From: Candidatus Babeliales bacterium
GTDB taxonomy: Bacteria; Babelota; Babeliae; Babelales; JBFXEV01
Reading direction: 5' to 3'
NCBI GenBank assembly: GCA_050179755.1
Contig: JBFXEV010000001.1
Coordinates: 395,567-459,566, forward strand
DNA length: 64,000 bases
Shown here piece by piece: positions 1-18,830 of this stretch (its first letter is position 1; each line of letters opens with the position of its first letter). The notes under the pieces are model-generated. The model was not told the DNA's origin and did no database searches. It saw nothing but the letters and a program-made list of their open reading frames with translations. The position numbers and the translations under genes are program-made.

Positions 1-65
1 ATGCTGATGAAGTGATCAAGCGGGTGCTCATGGCATCTAAAGTAGTGAAAGCTTCTGAATCGTGA
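1..65 (+). CDS. 3' end of an unidentified upstream gene (partial, runs off the window)
   Basis: The frame is open from the window edge (..ADEVIKRVLMASKVVKASES*). Its TGA at 63-65 overlaps the GTG start of the next gene (GTGA junction). Too short to name. Confidence 0.3.
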   Translation, partial: ADEVIKRVLMASKVVKASES

Positions 66-1171
66 CCAAAAAGAAGCGCATTCTAACAATTGGTGGCGCT
101 ACTGAAGATATCTTTCTTGACTATCAACAAGCGCAGACAATGCTAATCAATACTAAGCAGGGGCAACGCTCCTGCTTAGTGCTTGAAGAAGGCGCAAAAC
201 TAGAAATAAATCAACTTACGTATACTACCGGCGGCGGTGCAACCAATTCTGCTACGTCATTTGAACGGCAAGGCTTTGATGTCACGGCATGTTGCAAATT
301 AGGCCTCGATGTGCAAGGCCAATACATTAAAGAACAACTTATCACTAATAACATAGATACTAAAGCGGTATCTTTTCATGAAACTATACCAACCGGTCTT
401 TCATGCATCATAAAAGCACCCAGCGGCAATCATACTATTCTTGCCTATCGCGGTGCAAATACAACACTCAAAGCAAGCGATATCCCTTTTGATATGTTTA
501 AAAATATGGACCTGCTTTATGTCACCTCTCTTTCGGGAGAATCTTCAAAGCAGCTTGGTGTTATTATTGAAAAAGCATTAGCAGCAAAAGTTCCCGTGGC
601 ACTTAACCCTGGCGCCAGCCAACTTGCCTCATGCACCAAAGGATTGTGCACAGCACTCTATGGCATTGATATACTTATTTTAAATGCTGATGAAGCAAAA
701 ACTTTTTTATATGCGCTTATGCAAAGTGATGAGAATTTGAAAAAAGAACTTACACAAAAAGCACCCGGTATAACAAACATTGGAGAACTTTCTCAAGAAA
801 GTATGTACAAAGACATGCACTTTACCATCGAGCGTTACTTTAAGATTATTCTTTCTCGTGGCACACGTGTTGCGGTAGTAACTAATGGTGCAGAAGGTGT
901 GTATGTGGCCACCAAAGATACCATGTATTTTCATAAAAGTTTGCCCGCAACCGTAATTAATACCGTTGGTGCTGGTGATGCGTTTGGCTCTACCTTTGTA
1001 GGTTCGCTCGCAGCTGACTATTCTTTAGAAGAAGCTATTGTACGCGGTATACTTAATGCCGTCTCAGTGATTAGTTCCTTAAACGCAAAAGATGGTTTAT
1101 TGAATGCACGAGAACTTGATCAACGGCTTAAAGATGTTGGCATTGCGGGGATATCAACGTTTTTGCTCTAA
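62..1171 (+). CDS. PfkB/ribokinase-family carbohydrate kinase
   Basis: 369 aa. N-terminal 'TTGGGATNSA' and C-terminal 'NTVGAGDAFGSTFVG' (the DTxGAGD-type PfkB signature). GTG start is coupled to the upstream stop. Confidence 0.8.
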   Translation: MTKKKRILTIGGATEDIFLDYQQAQTMLINTKQGQRSCLVLEEGAKLEINQLTYTTGGGATNSATSFERQGFDVTACCKLGLDVQGQYIKEQLITNNIDTKAVSFHETIPTGLSCIIKAPSGNHTILAYRGANTTLKASDIPFDMFKNMDLLYVTSLSGESSKQLGVIIEKALAAKVPVALNPGASQLASCTKGLCTALYGIDILILNADEAKTFLYALMQSDENLKKELTQKAPGITNIGELSQESMYKDMHFTIERYFKIILSRGTRVAVVTNGAEGVYVATKDTMYFHKSLPATVINTVGAGDAFGSTFVGSLAADYSLEEAIVRGILNAVSVISSLNAKDGLLNARELDQRLKDVGIAGISTFLL

Positions 1172-1519
1172 AACAATCTTACCGTTATCCCTACGAATCA
1201 AAATCTCTTTAGGGCTATCGGCAATAAGCTCATTAAAACGATTAATAACGCCTAATAGTTCAAATTTATTGGTAACTAAGGTGGCTTTTTTATTCGTTAC
1301 TAATGGCTCAAGGCTTACGCGCATTTGATCGCCATACTTTTCGATGAAGGTAACTTTACCAGAAATTTCACCTTCATTGGTTGCAGTGATCCAATCTTGA
1401 AATTGATCAGGGCTGCCGCCATCGGTTAAAAAATGAGCTAATGCAAGCAAGCAATCATCTGTTGCAGCATCAGGAACATAGACCCCTTTGCCAACATATT
1501 TTAATAAAGCATACAACAT
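1154..1519 (-). CDS. hypothetical cytoplasmic protein, distant paralog of 28965..29330
   Basis: 121-aa ORF with no signal peptide. It shares the blocks 'FLxDG' and 'GxhT..KxGxxMxVxL' with the immunity-like ORF 28965..29330. Its end overlaps the convergent PfkB gene by 18 nt. Confidence 0.4.
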   Translation of the reverse strand: MLYALLKYVGKGVYVPDAATDDCLLALAHFLTDGGSPDQFQDWITATNEGEISGKVTFIEKYGDQMRVSLEPLVTNKKATLVTNKFELLGVINRFNELIADSPKEILIRRDNGKIVLEQKR

Positions 1520-1647
1520 ATCTTTTCTCCTTTTGATCTATACGGTTCTAGATACATTCTATCACTTTTATATAATTGCTGGCAATTATATCACTCATTA
1601 TGCTACGTTAAAAAAAAAGACTAACTTTAACTAAAAAAGGAGCATTC

Positions 1648-2046
1648 ATGTTGTGTGTTATAGCATTACTGGCCGTTTTAGGCTTAAGCATATCTCTCTA
1701 TTCTTTTTGGGTTGATCGCAAGTTGCTTCATGACGCCACGTATAAGCCAATGTGCGATTTATCAGACAAAGTTTCTTGTTCAAAGCCATTCTCAACGCCA
1801 TATAGTGAAGTGCTGGGCATATCAAATACGGTCATTAGCATAATTTTTTATACCAGCATGTTTTGGCTTGCAATGGGTTGTTTTTCTAGATCATTGTTTT
1901 TAGGAGCATTAATCTCGGTTGTTGCTTCTATCTATTTGGCATATCTTTTATTTTTTAAAATAAAATCTTTGTGCCTTATTTGTGTATCGCTTTATATTGT
2001 GAACATTCTATTGCTCATTGCAACATATTATAATCTCTATTACTAA
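1648..2046 (+). CDS. VKOR (vitamin K epoxide reductase) family membrane protein
   Basis: 132 aa with about 4 TM helices. Loop cysteine pair 'CDLSDKVSC' and TM-embedded CxxC 'CLIC' are typical of bacterial VKOR homologs. Confidence 0.7.
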   Translation: MLCVIALLAVLGLSISLYSFWVDRKLLHDATYKPMCDLSDKVSCSKPFSTPYSEVLGISNTVISIIFYTSMFWLAMGCFSRSLFLGALISVVASIYLAYLLFFKIKSLCLICVSLYIVNILLLIATYYNLYY

Positions 2047-2055
2047 GGATCTTCT

Positions 2056-2499
2056 ATGTTTTCTAAAATAAAATCATGGTTTTGTAGTGAATCACTGTTT
2101 TCAAAAAACCTTGGACTTTCGGTAATCCGTATTGGTGTTGGCCTTATATTTATAGTGCTTGGTGCAGGAAAGTTAATGGCCGGACCAGAAAAATGGCAAG
2201 ATCTTGGCTTAATGACCCAATACGTAGGCATTTCCTTTTGGCCAAGCATGTGGGGCCTTTTGGGTGCATGTGCTGAATTTTTTGGTGGTATTGCATTGCT
2301 TATTGGATTTGCAACACGCGCTGCCGCTCTTGCCATTGCTTGTGTAATGATTGTGGCAACCGCATGGCATCATGGAAATGGTCATCCATTTATGCAAACT
2401 GCCTACCCGCTTTCATTGCTTTTTGTAATGATTGGGCTAATGATTGCTGGTGGCGGTAATTTTTCTGTTGATCGCTATATACATAGAAACAAGAAATAA
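2056..2499 (+). CDS. DoxX-family membrane protein
   Basis: 147 aa with 4 predicted TM helices. The 'RIGVGLIFIVLGAGKL' / 'AEFFGGIALLIGFATR' pattern is typical of DoxX. It starts 10 nt after VKOR, so the two are probably an operon. Confidence 0.65.
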   Translation: MFSKIKSWFCSESLFSKNLGLSVIRIGVGLIFIVLGAGKLMAGPEKWQDLGLMTQYVGISFWPSMWGLLGACAEFFGGIALLIGFATRAAALAIACVMIVATAWHHGNGHPFMQTAYPLSLLFVMIGLMIAGGGNFSVDRYIHRNKK

Positions 2500-2503
2500 A
2501 ATC

Positions 2504-2541
2504 AAGAAGGGCATGCTCTTAACAAAGAACATGCCCTTCTT
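2504..2541. terminator. bidirectional intrinsic-terminator-like hairpin
   Basis: Perfect 12-bp stem: aagaagggcatg (2504-2515) pairs with catgcccttctt (2530-2541). It lies between the convergent DoxX gene and the small Cys-rich gene and has A/T-rich flanks. Confidence 0.6.
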
Positions 2542-2558
2542 AAAAATTATAACGTCAG

Positions 2559-2714
2559 TTACTTAGCCATTGGATGCTTGTCGTTTTTGCATTCTTTGCA
2601 AGGATGCGAGTTTTTACAGCCGCATTTGCAATCACTGCATTTTTTTGTACAAGCTTCACATGACTTACACATTTTACCTGCTTTGCAGGTACAATTATTA
2701 TTTGAACGTTCCAT
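2559..2714 (-). CDS. metallothionein-like small cysteine-rich protein (51 aa), absent from the ORF track
   Basis: Hand translation: MERSNNNCTCKAGKMCKSCEACTKKCSDCKCGCKNSHPCKECKNDKHPMAK*. 12 Cys arranged as CxC/CxxC. An AGGAGG RBS lies 6 nt upstream of the ATG at 2714. Paralog of 2874..3032. Confidence 0.6.
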   Translation of the reverse strand: MERSNNNCTCKAGKMCKSCEACTKKCSDCKCGCKNSHPCKECKNDKHPMAK

Positions 2715-2873
2715 AGGAACCTCCTTTCTTTTGAGTCAGTTTGTATTAAAACTGACAACTTTACACAATACATCTTCCCATACTTTAGATATATCAAATT
2801 CAGCTAGCAAAAGTAAAGCGTAAAGGTACAAATCCTTAAAAACACTCAAAGCAGCCGATGCTCTCAAGAGTGA

Positions 2874-3032
2874 CTATTCTGGCTGGGCATAAGGATGACT
2901 ACATGTTCCACAGTCATTGCATGGGTGTGCACTATTGCACCCACAATCGCAATCTTTGCATCTTTGCGGGCAACTATCGTGCACTTTGCATACTTTACCA
3001 GTGCCACAATTGCAATTACCTGAACGTTCCAT
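2874..3032 (-). CDS. metallothionein-like small cysteine-rich protein (52 aa), absent from the ORF track
   Basis: Hand translation: MERSGNCNCGTGKVCKVHDSCPQRCKDCDCGCNSAHPCNDCGTCSHPYAQPE*. 12 Cys. An AAGGAG RBS lies upstream of the ATG at 3032. A hairpin plus T-run follows the stop on the minus strand (about 2838-2873). Confidence 0.6.
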   Translation of the reverse strand: MERSGNCNCGTGKVCKVHDSCPQRCKDCDCGCNSAHPCNDCGTCSHPYAQPE

Positions 3033-3119
3033 TATAAACACTCCTTTTTATGATAAATACCTTATGCTCTAGATATAGCAAACTGCTGTGGGAGGGTAAA
3101 GAGTTATGATAGAAAAAGA

Positions 3120-3737
3120 TTAAAAAGACTGATTTTGCGCCAAAAAGCTCAGCAACTTTTTAACTGCTGCAACCCTATGGGACTTTGCGCACGACTGCCC
3201 CATAGTAATAAGCTGGGTAATGGTCTTTCCAAATTCAGGGAGCACAAAAATGCTGCAGTAGGGAAAATCGGGAATATGGGGTGTTTCTGGTTGCTTTCCT
3301 ATCAATCCTTCTCGCACACCGTCAAACGTATGCACGTTGCCAGCAGGATCGGCAAGCGCGAGCACACAAGTAAAACGAGCAGTGCGATCTTGTGCAGGCA
3401 CACCTTTTAATTTTTCTAGAATAAAGGCCCGTTTTTGATCATCAGTCGCATTATCGCCTGCATAACGCCGTGAATAAATGCCAGGCTCACCACCTAAAGC
3501 ATCAATTTCTAAGCCTGAATCATCGGCAAGCACCATATGGCCCGTCATAGAGGCATACGTTTTTGCTTTTAAAATAGCATTTTCTTGAAACGTAGTTCCT
3601 GTTTCATCCACATCATGGGTGATACCCAATTGTGTTAATGAGACCAAGTTAAATCCTGAATCTGTAAGCAAATTCTTAAGTTCTGCAAATTTTGCTGTGT
3701 TGTGTGTTGCAATAACTAATGTTTTGTTGTTGTTCAT
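3120..3737 (-). CDS. rdgB: non-canonical purine NTP pyrophosphatase (RdgB/HAM1 family)
   Basis: 205 aa with Ham1 motifs 'ATHNTAKFAEL', 'TFQENAILKA', 'ADDSGLEIDALGGEPGIYSRRYAG' and a C-terminal 'SHR'. Confidence 0.85.
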   Translation of the reverse strand: MNNNKTLVIATHNTAKFAELKNLLTDSGFNLVSLTQLGITHDVDETGTTFQENAILKAKTYASMTGHMVLADDSGLEIDALGGEPGIYSRRYAGDNATDDQKRAFILEKLKGVPAQDRTARFTCVLALADPAGNVHTFDGVREGLIGKQPETPHIPDFPYCSIFVLPEFGKTITQLITMGQSCAKSHRVAAVKKLLSFLAQNQSF

Positions 3738-4100
3738 AATTAAAATCCTAAAAAATTGAAGCGCATAGCGCGAAATTCTTCGTAGCCAAAAAAGTTACAG
3801 GTAACTTTTAAAATCATCAACTATTCCGGCGAAGTAGAAATAATTGACCCACAGGGGAATAACCCTGAAAGGTACCTAAAAAAAGCAATTTTGAGAGGGA
3901 AATTGCGAAATACTCGCTGTGAAAGACCTGTGAGAAACTTTGTTCAAAATTATACCAGATTAATACTATATGTCAATAACAAGATGAGTCCCGGGCTATT
4001 ATCCTTAACCATTTTACCATTAAAACCTACTTTGAATTTCGACCATATCAAATACAAAACATCCTTGAATTTTAACCAAATTACAGGGGTAGCTATCAAA

Positions 4101-5451
4101 TGAAACGAATAATCGATTATTATCTAAAAAATTGGATCTCAGATCCCCTGCGGCAGCCCTTAATCTTAAAAGGCGCACGGCAAGTAGGCAAAACCCATGC
4201 TACCCGTGAACTGGCAAACATCTTTTGAAAGATTTGTTGAGGTCAACTTTGATCAACTACCTGCGGCTCGTCTTATCTTTGAAGAAGATTTAAAGCCCGA
4301 ACGAATAATAAGAGATCTTTCGTTACTCACCAAAAAAGATATCGTTCCTGGCTCAACTCTTTTGTTCTTTGATGAAGCGCAAGAGGCTCCCAAAGCACTT
4401 CAATCACTCCGCTACTTCTATGAAGAAATGCCTGACCTCCATATAATCGCTGCAGAGCTCCCTTCTTGATTTCACTATTGAAAAAATCGGCGAATCAGTT
4501 GGCCGTGTTGAATCACTCTACATGTACCCACTTTCTTTTATTGAATTTCTTGCAGCACTTGAAGAATACTCTCTCATTCAAGAAATTCTTGTCCATGAGC
4601 TTACTACGGAGCTCTCAACGCCCATTCATGAAAAATGTCTGCGTCTTGTTGCCGAGTATCTTGCCTTAGGCGGCATGCCCGCTGTAGTAAATTGCTGGCT
4701 CACATTCAAGACTCCTCGTCATTGTACAAAAATTCAAAAACGTCTTCTTAATTCTTATAAGCAAGGTTTTAGCAAATATGCAAAAAAACATCAGATTGAA
4801 TATGTTTCTATGCTTTTTAAAGAAGTACCTCGTCAATTAAGTAAAAAATTTAAATATAATGATATTGAAGGTGATTATCGCAAACGGGAACTTCAGCCAG
4901 CACTTAATCTTTTAGAAATCGCAGGCATTATTCACAAAGTATATGACTGTGCGGGCCAAGGAATGCCTCTTGGTGCTCAAATTGACAGTAATGATTATAA
5001 AACTATCTTTCTTGATGTAGGACTCATCCAATCAGTGCTTGCTCTTGACCTTACTGATTGGTTCTTAAATCCATTTAATGAATTTATAAATAAAGGAGCT
5101 CTTGTACAGGCTTTTGTTGGACAAGAATTACTTGCTTACAGCGATCCGCTTGAAAAGAGCGACTTGTATTATTGGCACCGTAATGCTCCCTCTAGTGTCG
5201 CCGAAATTGATTATCTCATTCAACAAGACAATCACATTATACCGGTTGAGGTAAAAAGTGGAGCAGGCACAACGCTCAAAAGCATGCATACTTTCCTTAA
5301 GGATCATCCATTCTCTCCTTATGGTATTCGATTTTCAGCCCAAAATTATTCTATTATGGATAACATTCACTCATATCCATTGTATGCGCTTGCAAAGATT
5401 GCATGCACAGGGCATCACGATATTAAAAAGTCTATTGAGGCACTTTTATAA
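4101..5451 (+). pseudogene. frameshifted AAA ATPase (AAA_14/DUF4143 family), paralog of 17439..18782
   Basis: It begins MKRIIDYYLKNW..GARQVGKT, collinear with the intact paralog. Homology then jumps frame twice, near 4222-4228 (premature TGA at 4226) and near 4454. Three track ORFs (4197.., 4466/4522..) together cover one gene. Confidence 0.8.
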
Positions 5452-5500
5452 TAAGGCAACACCTCACACGTTAACTCTTCTCCTTTTGCTTTATCTTTAA

Positions 5501-7029
<1,529 letters not shown>

Positions 7030-7030
<1 letters not shown>

Positions 7031-8265: not shown

Positions 8266-9981
8266 TTATGGTTTATTAAGAATTTCCAGAATACCATCCC
8301 AACGGGTTTTATATTTCCGCTGCAAATTGTTCCATATTGCTTGCGCTTGTTTAGTGTTCATAACAGACAATTTTTTAAACAACCAATCAATATCCCATAT
8401 ACGTATTGTATTGTCATTTGCGGCTGAAACAAGCTTGTTGTCAGAAGTTGCGCATAATAACTGTACAGTCTTTTCATGACCCTTACAGACTACAAGCTTT
8501 TTACCCTGTGTATTCCATACGCATATTGTACGATCAAAAGATGCTGAAACAATCTTATTATCATGCGTTACACAAACCCTATAAACCACATCTGTATGGC
8601 CGTTACACACTGCAAGTTGGTTCCCTTTAATATCCAGTATGCGCACCGTGTTATCTTGCAAACCTAAGACTATTTTATCATCAGGCGTTATGCATAGTGG
8701 CATAACATAACTTTTAGAATCGCTATATATACCATATTGATTACCTTGTATATCCCAGATGCATATTGTTTTAGGATTAAACGGTGAAACTATTTTATTT
8801 TCTGAGGTTACACATAATGAGTTGACAGAATTTGTATAACCATTGAACATGGTGCGTTGAGTGCCATCCAGATTCCAAATGCGTACGCTACCATCATCAG
8901 AATTTGAAACTATCGTTTTGCCATCTTGGGTTACACATACGGATGCAATAAATCCTGTATGACCCTCGCATAGCGCACTTTGTACGCCGTTCATATTCCA
9001 CACACGTACGGTCGTATCACAAGACCCTGAAATTATCGTTGTATCATCGTCTGTTATACACATTGACTTAATGGCATCGGTATGACCATTACACACAGCG
9101 TGTTGAGTGCCATCTATATTCCATATACGAATCGTACCATCTCTAGATCCTGAGACAATTTTATTATTACGGGTAATACATATTACATTAACGCAATCCG
9201 TATGCCCTCTACATATCGCATGCAGGATGCGATCCCTATTCCATATACAAAGCGTGCCATCTTCAGATCCTGAAACTATCATACCATCGTCAGTTATACT
9301 TATTGCCCTAACTCGATTTGTATGCTCATTGCGTATAACGCCACCTTGCTTACCATGCATCGGGCCCAAAATACAAACCATTTGATTTGCAATAATAAGG
9401 TTTCGAATTTCTGGAGGCAAGCTAGCAATTTTATCAAAAGGAATCTTTTTAACATTCATTTCTTTTGCAGCATCAATTGTCAATGCTAATTCCAAAAGAA
9501 GTGGAATATCCAAATAATTTGCTGCTATAATAAAGTCTATAAACGCAACAATATCAAAGGTTTGTATTTTAGCAATAATTTCTTGCTTAATAATATTTTT
9601 TTCTTCTTGATGGTCAGGTTGATCTTTAAATCTGGCAACTAACGGTAATAAGTCGTGAATCTTTTGCCATATAGATGCAGTAATAGTAGGAAGTGGAATT
9701 GCGTTATGCACCGTGTCATTTGCTGCATCTTCCAGTAAATTCTTGATTGTCTCAGATAATTTTAGAAGCTTATCTGGAACTTTAAAATCTTTGCCATCTT
9801 GAGTGGTGATAGTGGAATAATCCTCACTTTCCTGAACTGGCTCCATCCGCCGTTGCTCCTCTGGAGCGATGGCGCGATTGATATCACGACATAGCAATGG
9901 CGAAGTCGGATCCATCCCAAATGCAGAGCTTGCTCCGCATACTGCACCAAGTAATAAAATTAGTATATTTTTCTTTAACAT
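8266..9981 (-). CDS. exported Skp1-like (BTB-fold) domain / WD40 propeller fusion, paralog 1 (8 divergent blades, no C-terminal anchor)
   Basis: Signal peptide MLKKNILILLLGAVCGASSAFG. Skp1-like blocks 'ITTQDGKDFKVPDKLLKLSETIKNLLED', 'NAIPLPTITASIWQKI' and 'IIAANYLDIPLLLELAL'. Eight 'GHT..V..vc.T.d.kIVSGS.D.T.R.W' repeats follow. Confidence 0.75.
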   Translation of the reverse strand: MLKKNILILLLGAVCGASSAFGMDPTSPLLCRDINRAIAPEEQRRMEPVQESEDYSTITTQDGKDFKVPDKLLKLSETIKNLLEDAANDTVHNAIPLPTITASIWQKIHDLLPLVARFKDQPDHQEEKNIIKQEIIAKIQTFDIVAFIDFIIAANYLDIPLLLELALTIDAAKEMNVKKIPFDKIASLPPEIRNLIIANQMVCILGPMHGKQGGVIRNEHTNRVRAISITDDGMIVSGSEDGTLCIWNRDRILHAICRGHTDCVNVICITRNNKIVSGSRDGTIRIWNIDGTQHAVCNGHTDAIKSMCITDDDTTIISGSCDTTVRVWNMNGVQSALCEGHTGFIASVCVTQDGKTIVSNSDDGSVRIWNLDGTQRTMFNGYTNSVNSLCVTSENKIVSPFNPKTICIWDIQGNQYGIYSDSKSYVMPLCITPDDKIVLGLQDNTVRILDIKGNQLAVCNGHTDVVYRVCVTHDNKIVSASFDRTICVWNTQGKKLVVCKGHEKTVQLLCATSDNKLVSAANDNTIRIWDIDWLFKKLSVMNTKQAQAIWNNLQRKYKTRWDGILEILNKP

Positions 9982-10068
9982 GTTATAACCCTTATATCCG
10001 AATCAGTTTCAAAACTGAGACGGGTTTAGCCCGAAGTAGCTAACTTTTATTAGCGAAGACGGGCCCAT
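9982..10068 (-). repeat. conserved 87-88 nt inter-paralog spacer, copy 1
   Basis: gttataacccttatatccgaatcagtttcaaaactgagacgggtttagcccgaagtagctaacttttattagcgaagacgggcccattt. It is nearly identical at all four junctions. It contains short dyads (tcagttt/aaactga, gctaa/ttagc, gcccg/cgggc) and the RBS of the downstream paralog. Confidence 0.8.
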
Positions 10069-11706
10069 TTAATTATTTGAATTATCACTTGTAAGCCACT
10101 TGTATGCACACCAGCCAAATATCCCAAGAGCTGCTCCTACACCAAGTACTAATGCTGCTCTTTGAATCACCATTGTTGGCTCTTTCTGAACCTCATTATC
10201 TACTGCTAATCCAAGAATCTTCTTAATTCCATTCCAATCTTTTTGGTTCTCACCTTGCAAATAGTTCCAAATTTCTCTCGCTTGCTGAGCGCTTATTTGA
10301 GACAGCCAGTTAACATCCCACACGCGCACGGTGCGATCTACAGATCCTGAAACTATCTTATTGTCAGAAGTTGCACATACTGAAGTAACAGAATACGGAG
10401 TATAGAGATTGCAAACGCTCAGTTGATTACCTGCCATATCCCATATTCGCACGGTACCTATAGATCCTAAAACTATCTTATTGTCAGGAGTTACACATAC
10501 TGAGCTAACATAATCTGTATGGCCATTGCAAACGCTCAGTTGATTACCTGCCATATCCCATACTCGCACGCCGCCGTGATTAGCTCCTGAAACTATCTTA
10601 TTGTCAGACGTTACGCATACTGAATAAACCGAATTAGTATGGCCATTGCATACGCTCAGTTGATTACCTGCCATATCCCATACTCGCACGGTGCGATCTA
10701 TAGATCCTGAAACTATCTTATTGTCAGGAGTTACGCATACTGAAGTAACCTGATTTGTATGGCCATTACAAACACTCAGTTGATTACCTGCCATATCCCA
10801 TACTCGCACGGTGTCATCAACAGCTCCTGAAACTATCTTATTGTCAGGAGTTACACATACTGAATTAACCCAATTTGTATGGCCATGGCAAACGCTCAGT
10901 TGATTACCTGCCATATCCCATACTCGCACGGTGTCATCAACAGCTCCTGAAACTATCTTATTGTCAGGAGTTACACATACTGAATTAACGCCACATGTAT
11001 GGCCATGGCAAACGCTCAGTTGATTACCTGCCATATCCCATACGCGCACGGTGCCGTCATAAGATCCTGAAACTATCTTATTTTCAGGAGTTACACATAC
11101 TGAGCTAACATAATCTGTATGGCCATTGCAAACGCTCAGTTGATTACCGGGCACGGGTCCTAGTAAACGAGTCATCTGCCCTAACGTAATGGGGTAACGA
11201 ATTTCCCTTGGCAATCCAGCAATCTGTTCAGAAGTAATATTTTTAATATCAGTTTGTTTTGCAACATCAATTGCCAACTCTAACAAAAGAGGAATATCCA
11301 AATAATTGGTTGCTGCAATAAAATCCATAAGATCGGCACCATCAAATGCCTGTATTTGCGCCTTAATTTCTTGCTTAATGGCATCTTTTTCTTTTTGATG
11401 GTCCACAGGTTGCTCTTTAAAATTCTCTACTAACGGTAATAAGCCTTGAATCTTTTGCCATACAGACGCTGTAATAGTAGGAAGTGGAATTGCATTATGC
11501 ACCGTGTCATATGAAGCATCTTCCAGTAAATTCTTGATCGTCTCAGATAACTTTAAAAGAGTATCTTGAACTGTAAAACTTTTACCATCTTGCGTGGTGA
11601 TAGTTGAATGATCCTTAGATTCTTGGAATTGACTTTCCATCCCAAATGCAGAGCTTGCTCCGCATACTGCACCAAGTAATAAAATTAGTATATTTTTCTT
11701 TAACAT
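10069..11706 (-). CDS. exported Skp1-like / WD40 fusion, paralog 2 (7 blades, C-terminal TM anchor)
   Basis: Same signal peptide and Skp1-like region. Seven near-identical 40-aa blades 'NQLSVCNGHTxxVxSVCVTPDNKIVSGSxDxTVRVWDMAG'. The tail 'AALVLGVGAALGIFGWCAYKWLTSDNSNN' is hydrophobic. Confidence 0.75.
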   Translation of the reverse strand: MLKKNILILLLGAVCGASSAFGMESQFQESKDHSTITTQDGKSFTVQDTLLKLSETIKNLLEDASYDTVHNAIPLPTITASVWQKIQGLLPLVENFKEQPVDHQKEKDAIKQEIKAQIQAFDGADLMDFIAATNYLDIPLLLELAIDVAKQTDIKNITSEQIAGLPREIRYPITLGQMTRLLGPVPGNQLSVCNGHTDYVSSVCVTPENKIVSGSYDGTVRVWDMAGNQLSVCHGHTCGVNSVCVTPDNKIVSGAVDDTVRVWDMAGNQLSVCHGHTNWVNSVCVTPDNKIVSGAVDDTVRVWDMAGNQLSVCNGHTNQVTSVCVTPDNKIVSGSIDRTVRVWDMAGNQLSVCNGHTNSVYSVCVTSDNKIVSGANHGGVRVWDMAGNQLSVCNGHTDYVSSVCVTPDNKIVLGSIGTVRIWDMAGNQLSVCNLYTPYSVTSVCATSDNKIVSGSVDRTVRVWDVNWLSQISAQQAREIWNYLQGENQKDWNGIKKILGLAVDNEVQKEPTMVIQRAALVLGVGAALGIFGWCAYKWLTSDNSNN

Positions 11707-11794
11707 GTTATAACCCTTATATCCGAATCAGTTTCAAAACTGAGACGGGTTTAGCCCGAAGTAGCTAACTTTTATTAGCGAATACGGGTCCACT
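11707..11794 (-). repeat. conserved inter-paralog spacer, copy 2
   Basis: Same sequence as 9982..10068 with a few substitutions. Confidence 0.8.
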
Positions 11795-13618
11795 TTAATT
11801 ATTTGAATTATCACTTGTAAGCCACTTGTATGCACACCAGCCAAGCACGCCAAGAGCGGCACCAGTGCCAAGCGCTACTGCTGCTCTTTGCATTAAACTT
11901 GTTGGCTTAACCTCAGGCTTAGTATCTATTGCCAATCCAAGAATTTTCTTAACGCCGTTCCAGTCTTTTTTGTGATCACCTTGCAAATAGTTCCAAATTT
12001 CTCTCACTTGTTGAGCGCTTATTTGAGACAACCAATTAACATCCCACCCGCGCACGGTGCGCTCATCAGATCCTGAAACTATCTTATTGTCAGGAGTTAC
12101 ACATACTGATCCAACCCAATCTGTATGGCCATTGCAAACGCTCAGTTGATTGCCCGCCATATCCCATACTCGCACGGTGCCATCACTCGCTCCTGAAACT
12201 ATCTTATTGTCAGGAGTTACACATACTGAAATAACCCGATTTGTATGGCCATTGCAAACACTCAGTTGATTACCCGCCATATCCCATACTCGCACGGTGC
12301 GATCACTAGATCCTGAAATTATCTTATTGTCAGGAGTTACACATACTGATCCAACCCAATCTGTATGGCCATTGCAAACGCTCAGTTGATTGCCCGCCAT
12401 ATCCCATACTCGCACGGTGCCATCACTCGCTCCTGAAACTATCTTATTGTCAGGAGTTACACATACTGAGCTAACACTATCTGTATGGCCATTGCATACG
12501 CTCAGTTGATTACCTGCCATATCCCATACTCGCACGGTGCGATCTATAGATCCTGAAACTATCTTATTGTCAGACGTTACACATACTGAGCTAACATTAT
12601 CTGTATGGCCATTGCAAACGCTCAGTTGATTGCCCGCCATATCCCATACTCGCACGGTGCGATCCCAAGATCCTGAAACTATCTTATTGTCAGGAGTTAC
12701 ACATACTGAAGAAACCCAATGTGTATGGCCATTACAAACACTCAGCTGATTACCTGCCATATCCCATACGCGCACGGTGCCATCACTCGATCCTGAAACT
12801 ATCTTATTGTCAGCAGTTACGCATACTGAATTAACCCAATTTGTATGGCCATTGCAAACGCTCAGCTGATTGCCTGCCATATCCCATACTCGCACGGTAC
12901 CATCATGAGATCCTGAAACTATCTTATTGTCAGCAGTTACACATACTGATCTAACACTATCTGTATGGCCATTGCAAACGCTCAGCTGAATACCGGGCAC
13001 GGGTCCTAGTAAACGAGTCATCTGGCCTAACGTAATGGGGTAACGAATTTCCCTTGGCAATGCAGCAATCTGTTCAGAAGTAATATTTTTAATATCAGTT
13101 TGTTTTGCAACATCAATTGCCAACTCTAACAAAAGAGGAATATCCAAATAATTGGTTGCTGCAATAAAATCCATAAGATCGGCACCATCAAATGCTTGTA
13201 TTTGAGCCTTAATTTCTTGCTTAATGGCATCTTTTTCTTTTTGATGATCCACAGGTTGCTCTTCAAAATTCTCTACAAACTGCAATAAGCCTTGAATCTT
13301 TTGCCATATAGATGCAGTAATAGTAGGAAGTGGAATTGCATTATGCACCGTGTCATTTGCTGCATCTTCCAGTAAATTCTTGATCGTCTCAGATAATTTT
13401 AGAAGCTTATCTGGAACTTTAAAATCTTTACCATCTTGAGTGGTGATAGTGGAATAATCCTCACATTCCTGAACTGGCTCCATCCGCCGTTGCTCCTCTG
13501 GAGCGATGGCGTGATTGGTATCACGACATAGCAATGGCGAAGTCGGATCCATTCCAAATGCAGAGCTTGCTCCGCATACTGCACCAAGTAATAAAATTAG
13601 TATATTTTTCTTTAACAT
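11795..13618 (-). CDS. exported Skp1-like / WD40 fusion, paralog 3 (8 blades, C-terminal TM anchor)
   Basis: As above, with 8 blades. It carries the 'DPTSPLLCRD.N.AIAPEEQRRMEPVQE' insert after the signal peptide that is otherwise found only in paralog 1. Confidence 0.75.
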   Translation of the reverse strand: MLKKNILILLLGAVCGASSAFGMDPTSPLLCRDTNHAIAPEEQRRMEPVQECEDYSTITTQDGKDFKVPDKLLKLSETIKNLLEDAANDTVHNAIPLPTITASIWQKIQGLLQFVENFEEQPVDHQKEKDAIKQEIKAQIQAFDGADLMDFIAATNYLDIPLLLELAIDVAKQTDIKNITSEQIAALPREIRYPITLGQMTRLLGPVPGIQLSVCNGHTDSVRSVCVTADNKIVSGSHDGTVRVWDMAGNQLSVCNGHTNWVNSVCVTADNKIVSGSSDGTVRVWDMAGNQLSVCNGHTHWVSSVCVTPDNKIVSGSWDRTVRVWDMAGNQLSVCNGHTDNVSSVCVTSDNKIVSGSIDRTVRVWDMAGNQLSVCNGHTDSVSSVCVTPDNKIVSGASDGTVRVWDMAGNQLSVCNGHTDWVGSVCVTPDNKIISGSSDRTVRVWDMAGNQLSVCNGHTNRVISVCVTPDNKIVSGASDGTVRVWDMAGNQLSVCNGHTDWVGSVCVTPDNKIVSGSDERTVRGWDVNWLSQISAQQVREIWNYLQGDHKKDWNGVKKILGLAIDTKPEVKPTSLMQRAAVALGTGAALGVLGWCAYKWLTSDNSNN

Positions 13619-13705
13619 GTTATAACCCTTATATCCGAATCAGTTTCAAAACTGAGACGGGCCTAGCCCGAAGTAGCTAACTTTTATTAGCGAAGACGGG
13701 CCCAT
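13619..13705 (-). repeat. conserved inter-paralog spacer, copy 3
   Basis: Same sequence as 9982..10068 with a few substitutions. Confidence 0.8.
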
Positions 13706-15346
13706 TTAATTATTTGAATTATCACTTGTAAGCCACTTGTATGCACACCAGCCAAATATCCCAAGAGCTGCTCCTACACCAAGTACTAATGCTGCTCTTT
13801 GAATCACCATTGTTGGCTCTTTCTGAACCTCACTATCTATTGCTAATCCAAGAATCTTCTTAATTCCATTCCAATCTTTTTGGTTCTCACCTTGCAAATA
13901 GTTCCAAATTGCTCTCACTTGTTGAGCGCTTATTTGAGACAGCCAGTTAACATCCCACACGCGCACGGTGCCATCTACAGATCCTATAACTATCTTATTG
14001 TCAGCAGTTACACATACTGAATCAACCCAATTTGTATGGCCATTACAAACACTCAGCTGACTACCTGCCATATCCCATACTCGCACGGTGCCGTCATAAG
14101 ATCCTGAAACTATCTTATTTTCAGGAGTTACACATACTGAGCTAACCCAATTTGTATGGCCATTGCATACGCTCAGTTGATTACCTGCCATATCCCATAC
14201 TCGCACGGTGCCATCATCAGATCCTGAAACTATCTTATTGTCAGACGTTACGCATACTGAATGAACCGAATTAGTATGGCCATTGCAAACGCTCAGTTTT
14301 TGATTGCCTGCCATATCCCATACTCGCACGGTGCCATCATAAGATCCTGAAACTATCTTATTGTCAGGCGTTACACATACTGAAGTAACGCCATGTGTAT
14401 GGCCATTGCAAACGCTCAATTGCTTACCTGCCATATCCCATACTCGCACGGTGTCATCACGAGATCCTGAAACTATCTTATTGTCAGGCGTTACACATAC
14501 TGAGCTAACACTATCTGTATGGCCATTACAAACACTCAGTTGATTACCTGCCATATCCCACACTCGCACGGTGCCATCATCAGATCCTGAAACTATCTTA
14601 TTGTCAGGAGTTACGCATACTGAAATAACTTGATTGGTATGGCCATTGCAAACGCTCAGTTGATTACCTGCCATATCCCATACTCGCACGGTGCCATCAT
14701 AAGAACCTGAAACTATCTTATTGTCAGAGCTTACGCATACTGATCTAACGCCACGTGTATGGCCATTGCAAACACTCAGTTGAACACCAGGCACGGGTCC
14801 TAGTAAACGAGTCATCTGGCCTAACGCAATGGGATAACGAATTTGTCTTGGCAATGCAGCAATCTGTTCAGAAGTAATATTTTTAATATCAGTTTGTTTT
14901 GCAACATCAATTGCCACTTGCAATAACAGAGGAATATCCAAATAATTGGTTGCTGCAATAAAATCCATAAGATCGGCACCATCAAATGCTTGTATTTGAG
15001 CCTTAATTTTTTGTTTTATAGCTTCTTTTTCTTTTTGATGACCCACCGGTTGCTCTTCAAAATTCTCTACAAACTGCAATAAGCCTTGAATCTTTTGCCA
15101 TACAGACGCAGTAATAGTAGGAAGTGGAATTGCATTATGCACCGTGTCATATGCTGCATCTTCCAGTAAATTCTTGATCGTCTCAGATAACTTCAAAAGA
15201 GTATCTTGAACTGTAAAACTTTTACCATCTTGCGTGGTGATAGTTGAATGATCCTTAGATTCTTGGAATTGACTTTCCATTCCAAATGCAGAGCTTGCTC
15301 CGCATACTGCACCAAGTAATAAAATTAGTATATGTTTCTTTAACAT
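13706..15346 (-). CDS. exported Skp1-like / WD40 fusion, paralog 4 (7 blades, C-terminal TM anchor)
   Basis: As above. One blade junction has a 1-codon insertion ('NQKLSV'). Confidence 0.75.
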   Translation of the reverse strand: MLKKHILILLLGAVCGASSAFGMESQFQESKDHSTITTQDGKSFTVQDTLLKLSETIKNLLEDAAYDTVHNAIPLPTITASVWQKIQGLLQFVENFEEQPVGHQKEKEAIKQKIKAQIQAFDGADLMDFIAATNYLDIPLLLQVAIDVAKQTDIKNITSEQIAALPRQIRYPIALGQMTRLLGPVPGVQLSVCNGHTRGVRSVCVSSDNKIVSGSYDGTVRVWDMAGNQLSVCNGHTNQVISVCVTPDNKIVSGSDDGTVRVWDMAGNQLSVCNGHTDSVSSVCVTPDNKIVSGSRDDTVRVWDMAGKQLSVCNGHTHGVTSVCVTPDNKIVSGSYDGTVRVWDMAGNQKLSVCNGHTNSVHSVCVTSDNKIVSGSDDGTVRVWDMAGNQLSVCNGHTNWVSSVCVTPENKIVSGSYDGTVRVWDMAGSQLSVCNGHTNWVDSVCVTADNKIVIGSVDGTVRVWDVNWLSQISAQQVRAIWNYLQGENQKDWNGIKKILGLAIDSEVQKEPTMVIQRAALVLGVGAALGIFGWCAYKWLTSDNSNN

Positions 15347-15433
15347 GTTATAACCCTTATATCCGAATCAGTTTCAAAACTGAGACGGGTTTAGCCCGAA
15401 GTAGCTAACTTTTGTTAGCGAAGACGGGTCCAT
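15347..15433 (-). repeat. conserved inter-paralog spacer, copy 4
   Basis: Same sequence as 9982..10068 with a few substitutions. Confidence 0.8.
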
Positions 15434-17146
15434 TTAATTATTTGAATTATCGCTTGCAAACCACTTATATGCACACCAGCCAAGCACGCCAAGAGCGGCA
15501 CCAGTGCCAAGCGCTACTGCTGCTCTTTGTAACAAATTAGTTGGCTCAACAACCGCTGCTCTTAGCTCCAAATTAGCTGGCTCAACTAATGCTGCTCTTT
15601 GAATCACCATTGTTGGCTCTTTCTGAACCTCATTATCTACTGCTAATCCAAGAATTTTCTTAATTCCATTCCAGTCTTTTTTGTGATCACTTTGCAAATA
15701 GTTCCAAATTTCTCTCACTTGTTGAGCGCTTATTTGAGACAGCCAGTTAACATCCCACACGCGCACGGTGCCATCTACAGATCCTGAAACTATCTTCTTG
15801 TCAGCAGTTACACATACTGAATTAACGAGCTTTGTATGGCCATTGCAAACACTCAGTTGATTGCCTGCCACATCCCATACTCGCACAGTGCGATCTAGAG
15901 ATCCTGAAACTATCTTAGTGTCCGGCGTTACACATACTGAGCTAACACTATCTGTATGGCCATTGCAAACGCTCAGTTGATTACCTGCCATATCCCATAC
16001 TCGCACGGTGCCATCATAAAAACCTAAAACTATCTTATTGTCAGGAGTTACGCAGACGCACTTAACCCAATTTGTATGGCCATTGCAAACGCTCAGTTTT
16101 TGATTGCCTGCCATATCCCATACTCGCACGGTGCGATCTATAGATCCTGAAACTATCTTATTGTCAGGAGTTACACATACTGAGCTAACACTATCTGTAT
16201 GGCCATTACAAACACTCAGTTGATTACCTGCCATATCCCATACGCGCACGGTGTCATCAACAGATCCTGAAACTATCTTATTGTCAGGCGTTACACATAC
16301 TGAAGTAACCCGATTTGTATGGCCATTGCAAACACTCAGTTGATTACCTGCCATATCCCATACGCGCACGGTGCCATCACGAGATCCTGAAACTATCTTA
16401 TTGTCAGGAGTTACACATACTGAAATAACGCTACCTGTATAGCCATTACAAACACTCAGCTGATTACCTGCCATATCCCATACTCGCACGGTGCCATCAT
16501 AAGATCCTGAAACTATCTTATTGTCAGAACTTACACATACTGATCTAACGACACCTGTATGGCCATTGCAAACGCTCAGCTGAACACCTGGCACAGGTCC
16601 TAGTAAACGAGTCATCTGGCCTAACGTAATGGGATAACGAATTTCCCTTGGCAATGCAGCAATCTGCTCAGAAGTTATATTTTTAATATCAGTTTGTTTT
16701 GCAACATCAATTGCCACTTGGAATAACAGAGGGATATCCAAATAGTTTACTGCTGTAATAAAATCCATAAGATCGGCACCATCAAATGCTTGTATTTGCG
16801 CCTTAATTTGTCGTTTTATAGCTTCTTTTTCTTGGTGATGACCCACCGGTTGCTCTTCAAAATTCTCTACAAACTGCAATAAGCCTTGAATCTTTTGCCA
16901 TATAGATGCAGTAATAGTAGGAAGTGGAATTGCATTATGCACCGTGTCATATGCTGCATCTTCCAGTAAATTCTTGATCGTCTCAGATAGCTTTAAAAGA
17001 GTATCTTGAACTGTAAAACTTTTACCATCTTGCGTGGTGATAGTTGAATGATCCTTAGATTCTTGGAATTGACTTTCCATTCCAAATGCAGAGCTTGCTC
17101 CGCATAATGCACCGAACACTAAAATAAATATATGTTTCTTAACCAT
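15434..17146 (-). CDS. exported Skp1-like / WD40 fusion, paralog 5 (7 blades, chimeric C-terminal tail with TM anchor)
   Basis: As above. The tail joins the paralog 2/4 type ('EVQKEPTMVIQRAALV') to the paralog 3 type ('LLQRAAVALGTGAALGVLGWCAYKW'). Its upstream region is unique, so it is probably the first gene of the array. Confidence 0.75.
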   Translation of the reverse strand: MVKKHIFILVFGALCGASSAFGMESQFQESKDHSTITTQDGKSFTVQDTLLKLSETIKNLLEDAAYDTVHNAIPLPTITASIWQKIQGLLQFVENFEEQPVGHHQEKEAIKRQIKAQIQAFDGADLMDFITAVNYLDIPLLFQVAIDVAKQTDIKNITSEQIAALPREIRYPITLGQMTRLLGPVPGVQLSVCNGHTGVVRSVCVSSDNKIVSGSYDGTVRVWDMAGNQLSVCNGYTGSVISVCVTPDNKIVSGSRDGTVRVWDMAGNQLSVCNGHTNRVTSVCVTPDNKIVSGSVDDTVRVWDMAGNQLSVCNGHTDSVSSVCVTPDNKIVSGSIDRTVRVWDMAGNQKLSVCNGHTNWVKCVCVTPDNKIVLGFYDGTVRVWDMAGNQLSVCNGHTDSVSSVCVTPDTKIVSGSLDRTVRVWDVAGNQLSVCNGHTKLVNSVCVTADKKIVSGSVDGTVRVWDVNWLSQISAQQVREIWNYLQSDHKKDWNGIKKILGLAVDNEVQKEPTMVIQRAALVEPANLELRAAVVEPTNLLQRAAVALGTGAALGVLGWCAYKWFASDNSNN

Positions 17147-17438: not shown

Positions 17439-18782
17439 ATGATGAAAAGACTCATAGATTATTATTTATTAGAATGGAAAAACAAACCAAATCATAAGCC
17501 TTTGCTCCTGAGAGGAGCACGCCAAGTAGGGAAAACCTACGCCGTCCGTACCCTCGCAAAAACATTTGAAAACTATATCGAGCTTAACCTTGAATCAAAT
17601 ACTCTGGCTCGTAAAATTTTGTCTGAAGACCTAAATATAGAACGAATCCTGTTACAACTCTCTGAATCTTTTGGTCAACTTACTCCTGGCACCACCTTAT
17701 TGTTTATCGATGAAATTCAACACGTGCCCCAAGCAATTATTGCACTCAGATATTTTTATGAATTTGTGCCAAACCTTCATGTGATAGCTGCAGGATCTTT
17801 ACTAGATTTTGCTATCGAAGAAGTTGGTCTACCTGTGGGCCGTGTAACCATACGCTACATGTATCCATTATCATTTTTAGAATTTTTAGCTGCGTTAGGG
17901 CATAGCCATTGGGTTTTGGCTATTATTTCTGATAAGCCTGTGTTTGAAGAATTACATAAACAAATAATCAATCTTCTGAGCATGTATCTTGCAATCGGAG
18001 GCATGCCTGCAGCGGTCAATAATTGGCAAGAGGCAAAAAATTCACGCGCAGTTAAGGAAACACATACTGAAATTCTCACTGCATATGTAGGCGATTTTAA
18101 TACCTATGCAAAAAAACACCAGCAAAAATACCTCTCGCTTATTTTTGATAGAGCTATGCAACAACTTGCTAGAAAATTTATGTTCGCTCGCATAGGGGAA
18201 TATAAAAAACGAGAACTGGAACCGGCGCTTTTATTGCTTGAAAAGGCTGGTATCATATACCCTATTTATGAAAATAGTGGGCAAGGAATCCCACTAGGAT
18301 CTGATGTAAATTTTGATGATTTCAAAGTTATTTTTTTGGATATTGGTCTTGCGCAAGCACAGCTAAAATTTGATATATCAAGCTGGCTCATTAACCCTCA
18401 AGAAACGATCGTAAATCAAGGTGAACTTGTTGAAGCTTTTATAGGCCAAGAATTACTTGCCTATTCTGATCCTATCAAAAAAGAACAATTATATTATTGG
18501 CGAAAAAAAGTTCGTGGAAGCGATTGCGAAGTTGATTACCTTACACAATTAGGACAAAAAATTATACCAATCGAAGTTAAATCAGGCAGAAGTACTCGTT
18601 TACTCAGCATGCATCGCTTTTTAGAAACACATCCAAAATCACCTTATGGCATTCGTTTTTGGGCAAATACTGAAACTAAAGAAGCCTCTCTGCATTCGTT
18701 GCCATTATATGCAGTTGCTAAACCATTTTTAAACGAACAATCTTATTTAAAACAAGCTCTCATGTTTTTAATTACAGATTAA
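17439..18782 (+). CDS. AAA ATPase with C-terminal PD-(D/E)xK-like module (AAA_14/DUF4143 family), intact copy
   Basis: Walker A 'GARQVGKT' and Walker B 'LLFIDEIQ'. The C-terminal 'CEVDYL....IIPIEVKSG' has a D..ExK arrangement. The RBS GGGAAGG lies upstream. Confidence 0.75.
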   Translation: MMKRLIDYYLLEWKNKPNHKPLLLRGARQVGKTYAVRTLAKTFENYIELNLESNTLARKILSEDLNIERILLQLSESFGQLTPGTTLLFIDEIQHVPQAIIALRYFYEFVPNLHVIAAGSLLDFAIEEVGLPVGRVTIRYMYPLSFLEFLAALGHSHWVLAIISDKPVFEELHKQIINLLSMYLAIGGMPAAVNNWQEAKNSRAVKETHTEILTAYVGDFNTYAKKHQQKYLSLIFDRAMQQLARKFMFARIGEYKKRELEPALLLLEKAGIIYPIYENSGQGIPLGSDVNFDDFKVIFLDIGLAQAQLKFDISSWLINPQETIVNQGELVEAFIGQELLAYSDPIKKEQLYYWRKKVRGSDCEVDYLTQLGQKIIPIEVKSGRSTRLLSMHRFLETHPKSPYGIRFWANTETKEASLHSLPLYAVAKPFLNEQSYLKQALMFLITD

Positions 18783-18830
18783 TACTATATTCTATAAAAC
18801 CATCGTTATGCTATGATCGGGGGAAACAGG

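Follow-up and report, generated by a model that had tools for sequence, protein, structure and literature searches.

Tandem Skp1-like WD40 proteins with homogenised blades and hypervariable propeller residues in a Candidatus Babeliales genome

Near-identical repeats that differ at a few hypervariable surface residues are a recognised route to the rapid evolution of new binding specificities, and the known examples – NOD-like receptors (NLRs) of fungi and STAND proteins of bacteria – are mostly found on the side of defence. For fungal NLRs a model of concerted evolution combined with selection is established (PMC1805685, PMC2873952): four codons of the NWD/HET-E repeats of Podospora anserina are positively selected (Paoletti et al., PMC1805685), and they form two pairs at the top of the propeller, the first on either side of a conserved d-a loop residue and the second on either side of a conserved residue of the b-c turn (PMC1805685). 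Highly repetitive WD40 proteins of prokaryotes, with a conserved scaffold and variable hotspot sites, were catalogued in 2017 by Hu et al. (PMC5587647). Here we describe a tandem family of five WD40 genes in a stretch of 64,000 nucleotides (the window) from a Candidatus Babeliales bacterium (assembly GCA_050179755.1, contig JBFXEV010000001.1, positions 395,567 to 459,566). Here an obligate intracellular parasite carries the same WD40 subtype, varying at those positions, fused to an adaptor of ubiquitin ligases that resembles Skp1. A preliminary description, made from the letters of the window alone, had likened the pattern of conserved blades and variable codons to that of fungal NLR/HET genes and remarked on its appearance in an exported bacterial protein family; the catalogue of Hu et al. 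shows that in bacteria the pattern is not new (PMC5587647).

The five paralogs, here named p1 to p5, lie head to tail on the minus strand (coordinates throughout are window positions), and all are intact open reading frames in which the phasing of the blades is regular (Table 1). Each protein consists of an N-terminus resembling a Sec-type signal, a domain homologous to Skp1 and a propeller of seven or eight blades, to which p2 to p5 add a C-terminal hydrophobic helix. When the proteins are cut at each Q(K)LSVC motif, p2 to p5 yield 29 blades (7, 8, 7 and 7) with the consensus NQLSVCNGHTxxVxSVCVTPDNKIVSGSxDxTVRVWDMAG; p1 contributes eight further, diverged blades, for 37 overall. In the number and consensus of the blades the preliminary description is borne out, as it is in placing the arrays at 10312-16582 (ours agree to within 3 nt), in the dipeptides that it listed after GHT, every one of which is present, and in the indels at blade junctions, namely an NQK insertion in the fifth blades of p4 and p5 and a blade of 39 amino acids (the sixth of p2). 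Blades 5-7 of p2 are partly degenerate, with the 39-residue blade and the sequences SGANHGG and NLYTPYS.

The blade unit is 120 bp, which is also the period of the four arrays detected by Tandem Repeats Finder (85-89% matches). Mean pairwise nucleotide identity among the 29 blades is 86.8% (range 74-97%), so the earlier statement that the DNA of successive units is almost the same is too strong; the contrast with the scaffold is nonetheless real, identity being 93.7% for scaffold codons and, overall, 92-94% when the variable codons are left aside. At the protein level the mean pairwise identity of blades from the same protein is 0.79-0.87 in p2 to p5 and 0.40 in p1 (values from a crude segmentation by regular expression, not from WDSP), which places p2 to p5 within the definition of highly repetitive WD40 proteins (internal amino acid identity of at least 0.7; Hu et al. 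2017). In a codon alignment of the 29 blades amino acid entropy reaches 2.3-3.0 bits at columns 12, 14, 16 and 31. The four hypervariable codons are those of both residues after GHT, of the residue after the following V, and of the x of SGS-x-D. Entropy falls to 1.3-1.4 bits at columns 2, 22 and 33, which comprise the D-x-T position (column 33, a fifth and weaker variable codon), the T-x-D position and the residue at the blade junction; it is 0.87 bits at column 30 and at most 0.6 in the remaining columns. Variation is thus focused on a few codons, as had been proposed – four strongly variable and a fifth less so. The second and third blades of p2 illustrate the pattern: of their 120 nt just 4 differ, each of them inside one of two hypervariable codons.

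Divergence was estimated from Nei-Gojobori counts over all blade pairs. Scaffold codons show a synonymous divergence (dS) of 0.20 and a non-synonymous divergence (dN) of 0.026, so that the scaffold is evidently under strong purifying selection; dN of the hypervariable codons is 1.02. Blades were also matched greedily on scaffold similarity alone, which gave 14 independent sister pairs and avoids recounting related pairs. Between sisters the hypervariable codons carry 0.556 non-synonymous differences per site, compared to 0.100 synonymous differences per scaffold site (Fisher P = 2e-24) and 0.019 non-synonymous differences per scaffold site. The preliminary description had named, as an outcome that would overturn it, synonymous sites as variable as the hotspot codons; given the values of 0.556 and 0.100 this is not so, synonymous variation being 3-5 times lower than that of the hotspots. 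Indeed, the hypervariable codons differ as much between sister blades as between blades paired at random.

An AlphaFold2 model of p4, built from a family alignment of 50 sequences, is a seven-bladed propeller with a mean predicted local distance difference test score (pLDDT) of 88.2 and a predicted template modelling score of 0.79. Secondary structure assigned by DSSP and laid over the blades gives an identical layout of elements in all of them (Table 1). In this model the strongly variable sites occupy the d-a loop, the second position of strand a and the b-c turn, that is, the top face of the propeller, where they had been expected; on the opposite side, that of the a-b loop, the sole moderately variable residue is at the P/S/A position. 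The placement rests on the DSSP mapping, and solvent exposure of these residues is thus predicted. The x-V-x and x-D-x pairs are homologous to the positions selected in Podospora. At four or five sites in each blade, every one of them on the modelled top face, the residue is effectively randomised. The best matches of the propeller model in the PDB are the highly repetitive propeller of Nostoc (2ymu), its designed derivatives, and PkwA; 2ymu and PkwA match at E = 1e-25 with 37% identity and a root-mean-square deviation (rmsd) of 0.8-1.4 Å.

The preliminary description had overlooked the nature of the N-terminal part: the stretch of approximately 165 residues that follows the N-terminal hydrophobic segment and precedes blade 1 is a homologue of Skp1. 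The Pfam family Skp1_POZ (PF03931) is matched at E = 3e-9 to 3e-10 (scores of 37.2 and 40.6 bits, the gathering cut-off being 21.9), and a phmmer search of the PDB with a single sequence returns Skp1 chains only (E = 2.5e-8), the alignment covering Skp1 residues from about 7 to 146 and including the 'AANYLDI' helix. With a family profile of 14 sequences 33 Skp1 chains of the PDB are found at E <= 2.5e-6 (best 3e-13); all matches below E 0.1 are Skp1, while among the matches listed the sole BTB protein has E = 0.67 and no chain is Elongin C. Structure prediction agrees: in a Foldseek search of the PDB with the AlphaFold model of the domain (pLDDT 85.8) the 50 top matches are all Skp1 chains, aligned over 133-170 columns with an rmsd of 5-9 Å. 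Of the C-terminal helices of Skp1, the sequence alignment takes in H5-H6 ('ANYLDI..LL') and the start of H7, ending at about residue 146. The Tyr of 'NYLDI' is invariant across the family; it lies in helix H5, which in Skp1 belongs to the contact with Cul1, and is thus a candidate contact residue.

From the Skp1-like core to blade 1 there are about 20 residues ('LPRQIRYPIALGQMTRLL'), and a conserved 'LPxxIR..I' helix is the sole link between the two. Pfam searches of the 187-residue N-terminal region gave no F-box family at E <= 10, and for the isolated N- and C-terminal regions no NACHT, NB-ARC or other NTPase family was listed at E up to 10; in scans of the full-length proteins the 25 families listed, of 36-46 per protein, were all beta-propeller or WD40 models. 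Having a Skp1-like N-terminus and no NACHT, the proteins are not NLRs. The likeness to fungal NLRs suggested in the preliminary description therefore extends to the repeat dynamics, which are common to both, and stops at the architecture.

The family is expanded. In a full scan of 1.84 billion representative proteins the N-terminal profile matches 145 clusters at E <= 1e-10; most of the stronger matches have a length of 500-620 amino acids and the domain at residues of about 20-190, which is the fusion architecture, and sequences of the size of Skp1 itself (about 160 amino acids) rank lower in the list. Of 120 listed homologues, at least 27 are encoded on a single 413-kb contig from a related genome and 16 on another contig. 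Throughout the family the N-terminus has basic residues followed by a hydrophobic stretch, predicted to be of the Sec signal peptide type. The C-terminal hydrophobic helix, of 19 residues, is found in p2 to p5; p1 and the relatives lack such a helix. Two further features of the termini may be recorded. The Met directly after the N-terminal hydrophobic segment is invariant in 50 of 50 aligned members ('SSAFG-M-E', 'VVA-M-E/D'), its neighbours being poorly conserved; it is Met23 of p4 (window 15278-15280), with an equivalent codon in each of p1 to p5, and could be a cleavage or recognition motif or an internal start for a non-exported isoform. The C-termini of p2 to p5 end in poly-asparagine tails (..SDNSNN, for example at 13709-13726), as do those of relatives P0005-P0061 in other Babeliales metagenome-assembled genomes (MAGs; ..NINNNNNE), and these tails are possibly a secretion or targeting signal.

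Within p2 to p5 blade identity is 0.871 for blades of the same gene and 0.868 for blades of different genes. The four genes thus share one blade pool, and stronger homogenisation within genes than between them was not seen. The scaffold dS of the blades (0.20) equals that of the non-repeat N-terminal domain compared between paralogs (0.14-0.27). First, last and internal blades differ only slightly (0.90-0.93), which gives no clear evidence of an edge effect in the arrays or of the classic gradient expected from unequal crossover. Exchange between genes is evident in p1, the first 300 nt of which are 95-100% identical to p3, including a 22-codon insert that is absent from p2, p4 and p5, while the remainder is 62-80% identical to p3 and its blades are not homogenised; p1 is a mosaic of recombination or gene conversion. 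In p2 and p4 the common C-terminal region has a dS of 0.02, compared to 0.19 for the N-terminal domain. Duplication is evident in p3, in which two adjacent pairs of blades (b5b6 and b7b8; Table 1) are 96% identical and contain a 150-bp exact repeat (12080/12320). The duplicate blades differ almost only in hypervariable codons – the other changes are two synonymous, one I/V and those at the 3' junction – and this duplication of a 240-bp blade pair accounts for the eighth blade of p3. It is also the only segment at risk of being an assembly artefact. Finally, identical three-codon cassettes recur in blades of different genes, which is compatible with, and does not prove, an exchange of short cassettes between blades. 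Together these data show that the blade pool of p2 to p5 is kept alike by duplication and loss of blades and by recombination or gene conversion within and between genes.

A second Babeliales MAG, independent of the first and from a different data set, carries a comparable array (ERZ25039484 contig_54939, 163577-185292; here L002). It comprises 11 consecutive called genes that have WD40 hits; the analysis covered ten of them, and 49 ungapped blades were taken from at least nine tandem genes. Their consensus is NQLAVCRGHExxVxSVCVTxDGKIVSGSxDxTVRVWDMxG, the hypervariable positions are the same as in the window, and dN is 1.43 at these positions compared to a scaffold dS of 0.42 and a scaffold dN of 0.11. 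Scaffold dS between the two genomes is 0.91, against 0.19 within the window and 0.42 within L002, and the nearest neighbour of every blade lies in its own genome (24 of 24 window blades; 49 of 49 from L002). Many synonymous codons are likewise fixed per genome: in the window and L002, respectively, Leu3 is CTG and CTT, Val16 GTA and GTC, Ile24 ATA and ATT, Gly27 GGA and GGC, and Thr ACC and ACG. The concerted evolution of the scaffold that had been proposed for the window is upheld by this comparison, blades being closer within a genome than between genomes and their synonymous codons genome-specific. Since these codons occur in a common architecture of many blades and many paralogs, either the blades were homogenised after the two lineages split or propellers have been repeatedly rebuilt from a few blades; the two are one process viewed two ways. 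From the mosaics and the genome-specific codons we infer that conversion probably also acts within blades. A scan of genome contigs with an alignment of four family sequences returned one locus, in Babeliales MAG OY970310.1. As regards the L002 locus itself, some genes overlap by a few bases, two are seemingly truncated (379 and 179 amino acids), and the adjoining ribonucleotide reductase genes are split into fragments, which may reflect pseudogenisation or frameshift errors.

Table 1. Paralogs, parts of paralogs, spacers and blade elements of the Skp1-WD40 locus.
Feature	Window position	Strand	Description
p1 (paralog 1)	8266-9981	minus	571 aa; Skp1-like N-terminus, 8 diverged blades, no C-terminal hydrophobic helix
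p2 (paralog 2)	10069-11706	minus	545 aa; signal-like N-terminus, Skp1-like domain, 7 blades (array 10315-11145), C-terminal hydrophobic helix
p3 (paralog 3)	11795-13618	minus	607 aa; architecture as p2, 8 blades (array 12041-12991)
p3 two-blade tandem duplication, 240 bp	12032-12511	minus	b5b6 = 12272-12511, b7b8 = 12032-12271; 96% identical
p4 (paralog 4)	13706-15346	minus	546 aa; modelled exemplar; 7 blades, aa 188-465 (array 13952-14785)
p4 signal-like segment	15281-15346	minus	aa 1-22
p4 Skp1-like domain	14792-15256	minus	about aa 31-185
p4 C-terminal hydrophobic helix	13727-13783	minus	about aa 522-540, preceded by a helical region
p5 (paralog 5)	15434-17146	minus	570 aa; 7 blades (array 15752-16585)
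Intergenic spacers, 87-88 bp	9982-10068, 11707-11794, 13619-13705, 15347-15433	minus	near-identical at 4/4 junctions, including that of the divergent p1
Blade, strand d			QLSVCN (p4 DSSP)
Blade, d-a loop			GHT-x-x (p4 DSSP)
Blade, strand a			V-x-SVCV (p4 DSSP)
Blade, a-b loop			T(P/S/A)DNK (p4 DSSP)
Blade, strand b			IVSGS (p4 DSSP)
Blade, b-c turn			x-D-x (p4 DSSP)
Blade, strand c			TVRVW (p4 DSSP)

The five proteins are 100% identical to hypothetical proteins AB7F19_03335-03355 of a Candidatus Babeliales bacterium MAG, and the N-terminal insert common to p1 and p3 amounts to 22 amino acids. Because the spacers are near-identical at all junctions, the tandem unit includes the spacer; its predicted fold is two hairpins (-27.8 kcal/mol, z = -2.7), it ends in a ribosome-binding-like AAGGG, and it may be a terminator or processing element copied along with each gene. 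A 36-bp tandem repeat in p5 (15514-15619; 2.9 copies, 73% matches) lengthens the linker before the C-terminal hydrophobic helix and is translated as a 12-residue repeat (..QRAALVEPAN / LELRAAVVEPTN / LLQRAAVALGTG). Genes for ATPases of the AAA_14/DUF4143 type stand on both sides of the region (4522-5451 and 17439-18782), the match of the upstream one being restricted to the DUF4143 part, and a HerA/DUF87-like ATPase gene (18813-20444) adjoins the downstream one. Neither tRNA genes nor Rfam families at the gathering threshold were found in the 64-kb window, which has a GC content of 0.31-0.43 and a negative GC skew across nearly its whole length.

Babeliales belong to Dependentiae (TM6), which are obligate intracellular parasites of protists (PMC4776705, PMC4378268, PMC6561590). 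In Dependentiae such as Babela and Chromulinavorax, proteins with signal peptides and eukaryotic-type domains have been argued to be secreted into the host (PMC4378268, PMC6561590), and host ubiquitin signalling is a major proposed target of their effectors (PMC4378268, PMC6561590). The explanation that in our view best unites the observations, and that we consider reasonably probable, is that the locus holds a tandem Skp1-WD40 family, with one homogenised blade pool and a randomised top face, whose products are single-chain mimics of the substrate receptors of host cullin. In eukaryotes, F-box proteins such as Fbw7 and beta-TrCP, which bind substrate through the top face of their WD40 domain, are connected to Cul1 by Skp1. 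If the same holds here, the proteins would be exported to the host cytosol, the Skp1-like domain would dock on a host cullin, and the variable face of the propeller would recruit host proteins for ubiquitination, a single polypeptide thereby mimicking either the Skp1-Cul1-F-box (SCF) pairing of Skp1 with an F-box/WD40 protein or a substrate receptor of the BTB type. Diversifying selection on the propeller face would track host targets that change or are several in number. The C-terminal helix of p2 to p5 could anchor the protein on a host membrane; its retention in the bacterial envelope is equally possible. More tentatively – and this we regard as a possibility that may well prove wrong – Babeliales may keep an evolvable repertoire of single-chain host 'degraders', in which Skp1 plugs directly into host cullin without an F-box and the specificity of the WD40 face is reset as short hypervariable cassettes move between blades and between paralogs. 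Such a repertoire would be the pathogen-side counterpart of NLR or antibody-like repertoires, and would send variable host proteins (protist defence factors, for example) to the proteasome.

Several points weigh against host-directed cullin adaptors. No effector injection system has been recognised in Dependentiae, for which just components of type II secretion and of type IV pili are reported (PMC4776705), and a signal peptide together with a C-terminal helix would by default yield an inner-membrane protein facing the periplasm, where Skp1 has no known partner. The C-terminal, F-box-binding domain of Skp1 (PF01466) was not reported by Pfam at E <= 10. As to the repeats, a recombination test of the pairwise homoplasy index (PHI) type on the 29-blade alignment was not significant (observed 0.806, permuted 0.804, P = 0.55); since 53% of informative site pairs are incompatible irrespective of distance, the test is uninformative rather than negative, and for the same reason conversion tracts inside blades are not resolvable. 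The dN and dS values come from counting methods applied to recombining repeats rather than from a recombination-aware codon model, and the window stems from a single metagenome assembly.

If blades and genes had instead multiplied in a recent burst and then drifted neutrally, the variable codons would be merely unconstrained surface and neither concerted evolution nor positive selection would be needed. The similar dS of blade scaffold and N-terminal domain is in keeping with this, as one burst could yield both; so is the non-significant PHI test, and most highly repetitive prokaryotic WD40 proteins were read as young duplications by Hu et al. (PMC5587647). Neutrality, however, predicts that dN should about equal dS, whereas the proportion of non-synonymous differences at the four codons (0.56) is 3-5 times the synonymous divergence of the scaffold, and hotspot divergence is already saturated in blade pairs with identical scaffolds. 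Clear mosaics between paralogs also speak against a simple burst, as does the finding that two Babeliales genomes with a common layout of 7-8 blades and multiple paralogs each have their own synonymous codons fixed in all blades; we therefore think a neutral burst improbable. Export, for its part, need not mean delivery to the host: the proteins may be Sec-exported, C-terminally anchored envelope or surface proteins whose variable face binds ligands of the host or the environment from outside, with the Skp1 fold serving as a dimerisation or scaffold module. BTB/POZ folds commonly oligomerise, the signal-like N-terminus and hydrophobic helix of p2 to p5 fit a membrane-anchored exported protein, and no injection system is known in Dependentiae. 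Yet p1 and the much larger sister family of other Babeliales have no hydrophobic C-terminus, so that the anchor is not a family feature, and the N-terminal domain matches Skp1 specifically rather than a generic BTB. Skp1 is, to our knowledge, known only as a cullin/F-box adaptor of the eukaryotic cytosol and nucleus. Envelope proteins are on these grounds an unlikely, if respectable, explanation.

Two further accounts concern the origin of the repeats themselves. Near-identical 120-bp units might have been mis-joined, collapsed or expanded by a short-read metagenome assembler, a concern to which the 150-bp exact repeat beneath the eighth blade of p3 lends some force, as do the 47% of array 31-mers that are non-unique and the fact that a second assembly of the organism was not found. 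Just 1.6% of 127-mers are non-unique, however, the arrays sit within a contig of 1.53 Mb, the five reading frames are intact with regular blade phasing, and the pattern is repeated in the independent MAG, all of which makes an artefact very improbable. We give least credence to dedicated mutagenesis – a diversity-generating retroelement, for example – as the writer of the variable codons. The extreme locality of the variation, with multi-nucleotide changes in single codons of otherwise identical blades, is what such a system might produce, but no reverse-transcriptase domain was found by Pfam in ten neighbouring open reading frames (62-7030 and 17439-25741), and no non-coding template copy of a blade was found, Tandem Repeats Finder listing no 120-bp repeats outside the genes. 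Moreover, changes in the variable codons involve each of the four bases and each of the three codon positions, adenines of the scaffold are invariant (AAG, ATA and GAT in 29 of 29 blades), and the identical three-codon cassettes in different blades fit exchange between blades better.

WD40 and F-box proteins have been noted without detail in Dependentiae genomes (PMC4776705, PMC4378268); full-text searches of the literature on Dependentiae, effectors, amoebae and WD40 proteins turned up no account of a family that fuses Skp1 to WD40, nor of how the repeats of such a family evolve. The evolutionary mechanism is thus known, the protein context is new, and the functional interpretation is a plausible hypothesis. 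If the proteins reach the host cytosol and bind cullin, they would constitute a natural family of programmable effectors for targeted degradation, and a tractable record of arms races between parasites and protists, in a phylum for which functional data are almost lacking. From the fusion it further seems that an F-box can be dispensable, which bears on how SCF receptors are built.

Of the systems with which the locus can be compared, the NWD/HNWD genes of Podospora anserina (het-e, het-d, het-r) and fungal NLRs generally are closest in their repeats. In both, near-identical WD40 units are exchanged within and between paralogs and vary in number, and in both the selected positions are arranged as x-V-x (d-a loop and strand a) and x-D-x (b-c turn; PMC1805685). 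Fungal NACHT-WD proteins are the best hits outside Babeliales, with 40-50% identity, the WD40 subtype being common to both. The Babeliales proteins differ in having neither a NACHT/STAND NTPase nor a HET or other death domain, in showing no repeat-induced point mutation, in their Skp1-like N-terminal partner behind a signal peptide, and in belonging to a bacterium; their repeats are 87% identical at the nucleotide level, compared to up to 100% in Podospora, and have one additional variable position (GHT-x). The bacterial proteins of Hu et al., such as Npun_R6612 of Nostoc (2ymu) and PkwA of Thermomonospora (5yzv), likewise combine blade identity of at least 0.7 and low dS between blades with variable hotspots, and by sequence their WD40 subtype is again that of the Babeliales proteins. 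Unlike the present family, they are mostly cyanobacterial or actinobacterial, come from free-living organisms and are usually fused to kinase or STAND modules; none has been reported to carry a Skp1 domain or a signal peptide, to be encoded in tandem multigene arrays or to stem from an intracellular parasite.

In architecture the nearest counterparts are eukaryotic and viral. SCF receptors (Skp1 with Fbw7, beta-TrCP or Cdc4) likewise bring together a Skp1 fold and a WD40 propeller of seven or eight blades with a substrate-binding top face, and chains of beta-TrCP and Fbw7 can be aligned to about 410 columns of the full p4 model; here, in contrast, Skp1 and WD40 are parts of one polypeptide with no detectable F-box. 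The TAL effectors of Xanthomonas and Ralstonia are host-targeting proteins of near-identical tandem repeats, in each of which one or two hypervariable residues set specificity. Their repeats are helical and 34 residues long, their ligand is DNA and their export is by type III secretion, and the resemblance to the Skp1-WD40 proteins is one of analogy only, not of homology. The BTB/POZ and WD-repeat family of giant viruses (for example Mimivirus R739) has, like the Babeliales proteins, an N-terminus of POZ fold and a C-terminal propeller in about 490 amino acids, and the p4 model aligns with its members over about 490-560 columns at 12-16% identity. The viral POZ domain is annotated as BTB-type, not Skp1-type, and a virus needs no signal peptide. 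Each family is present in multiple copies in parasites of amoebae, and the likeness points to convergence of giant viruses and Babeliales on one solution.

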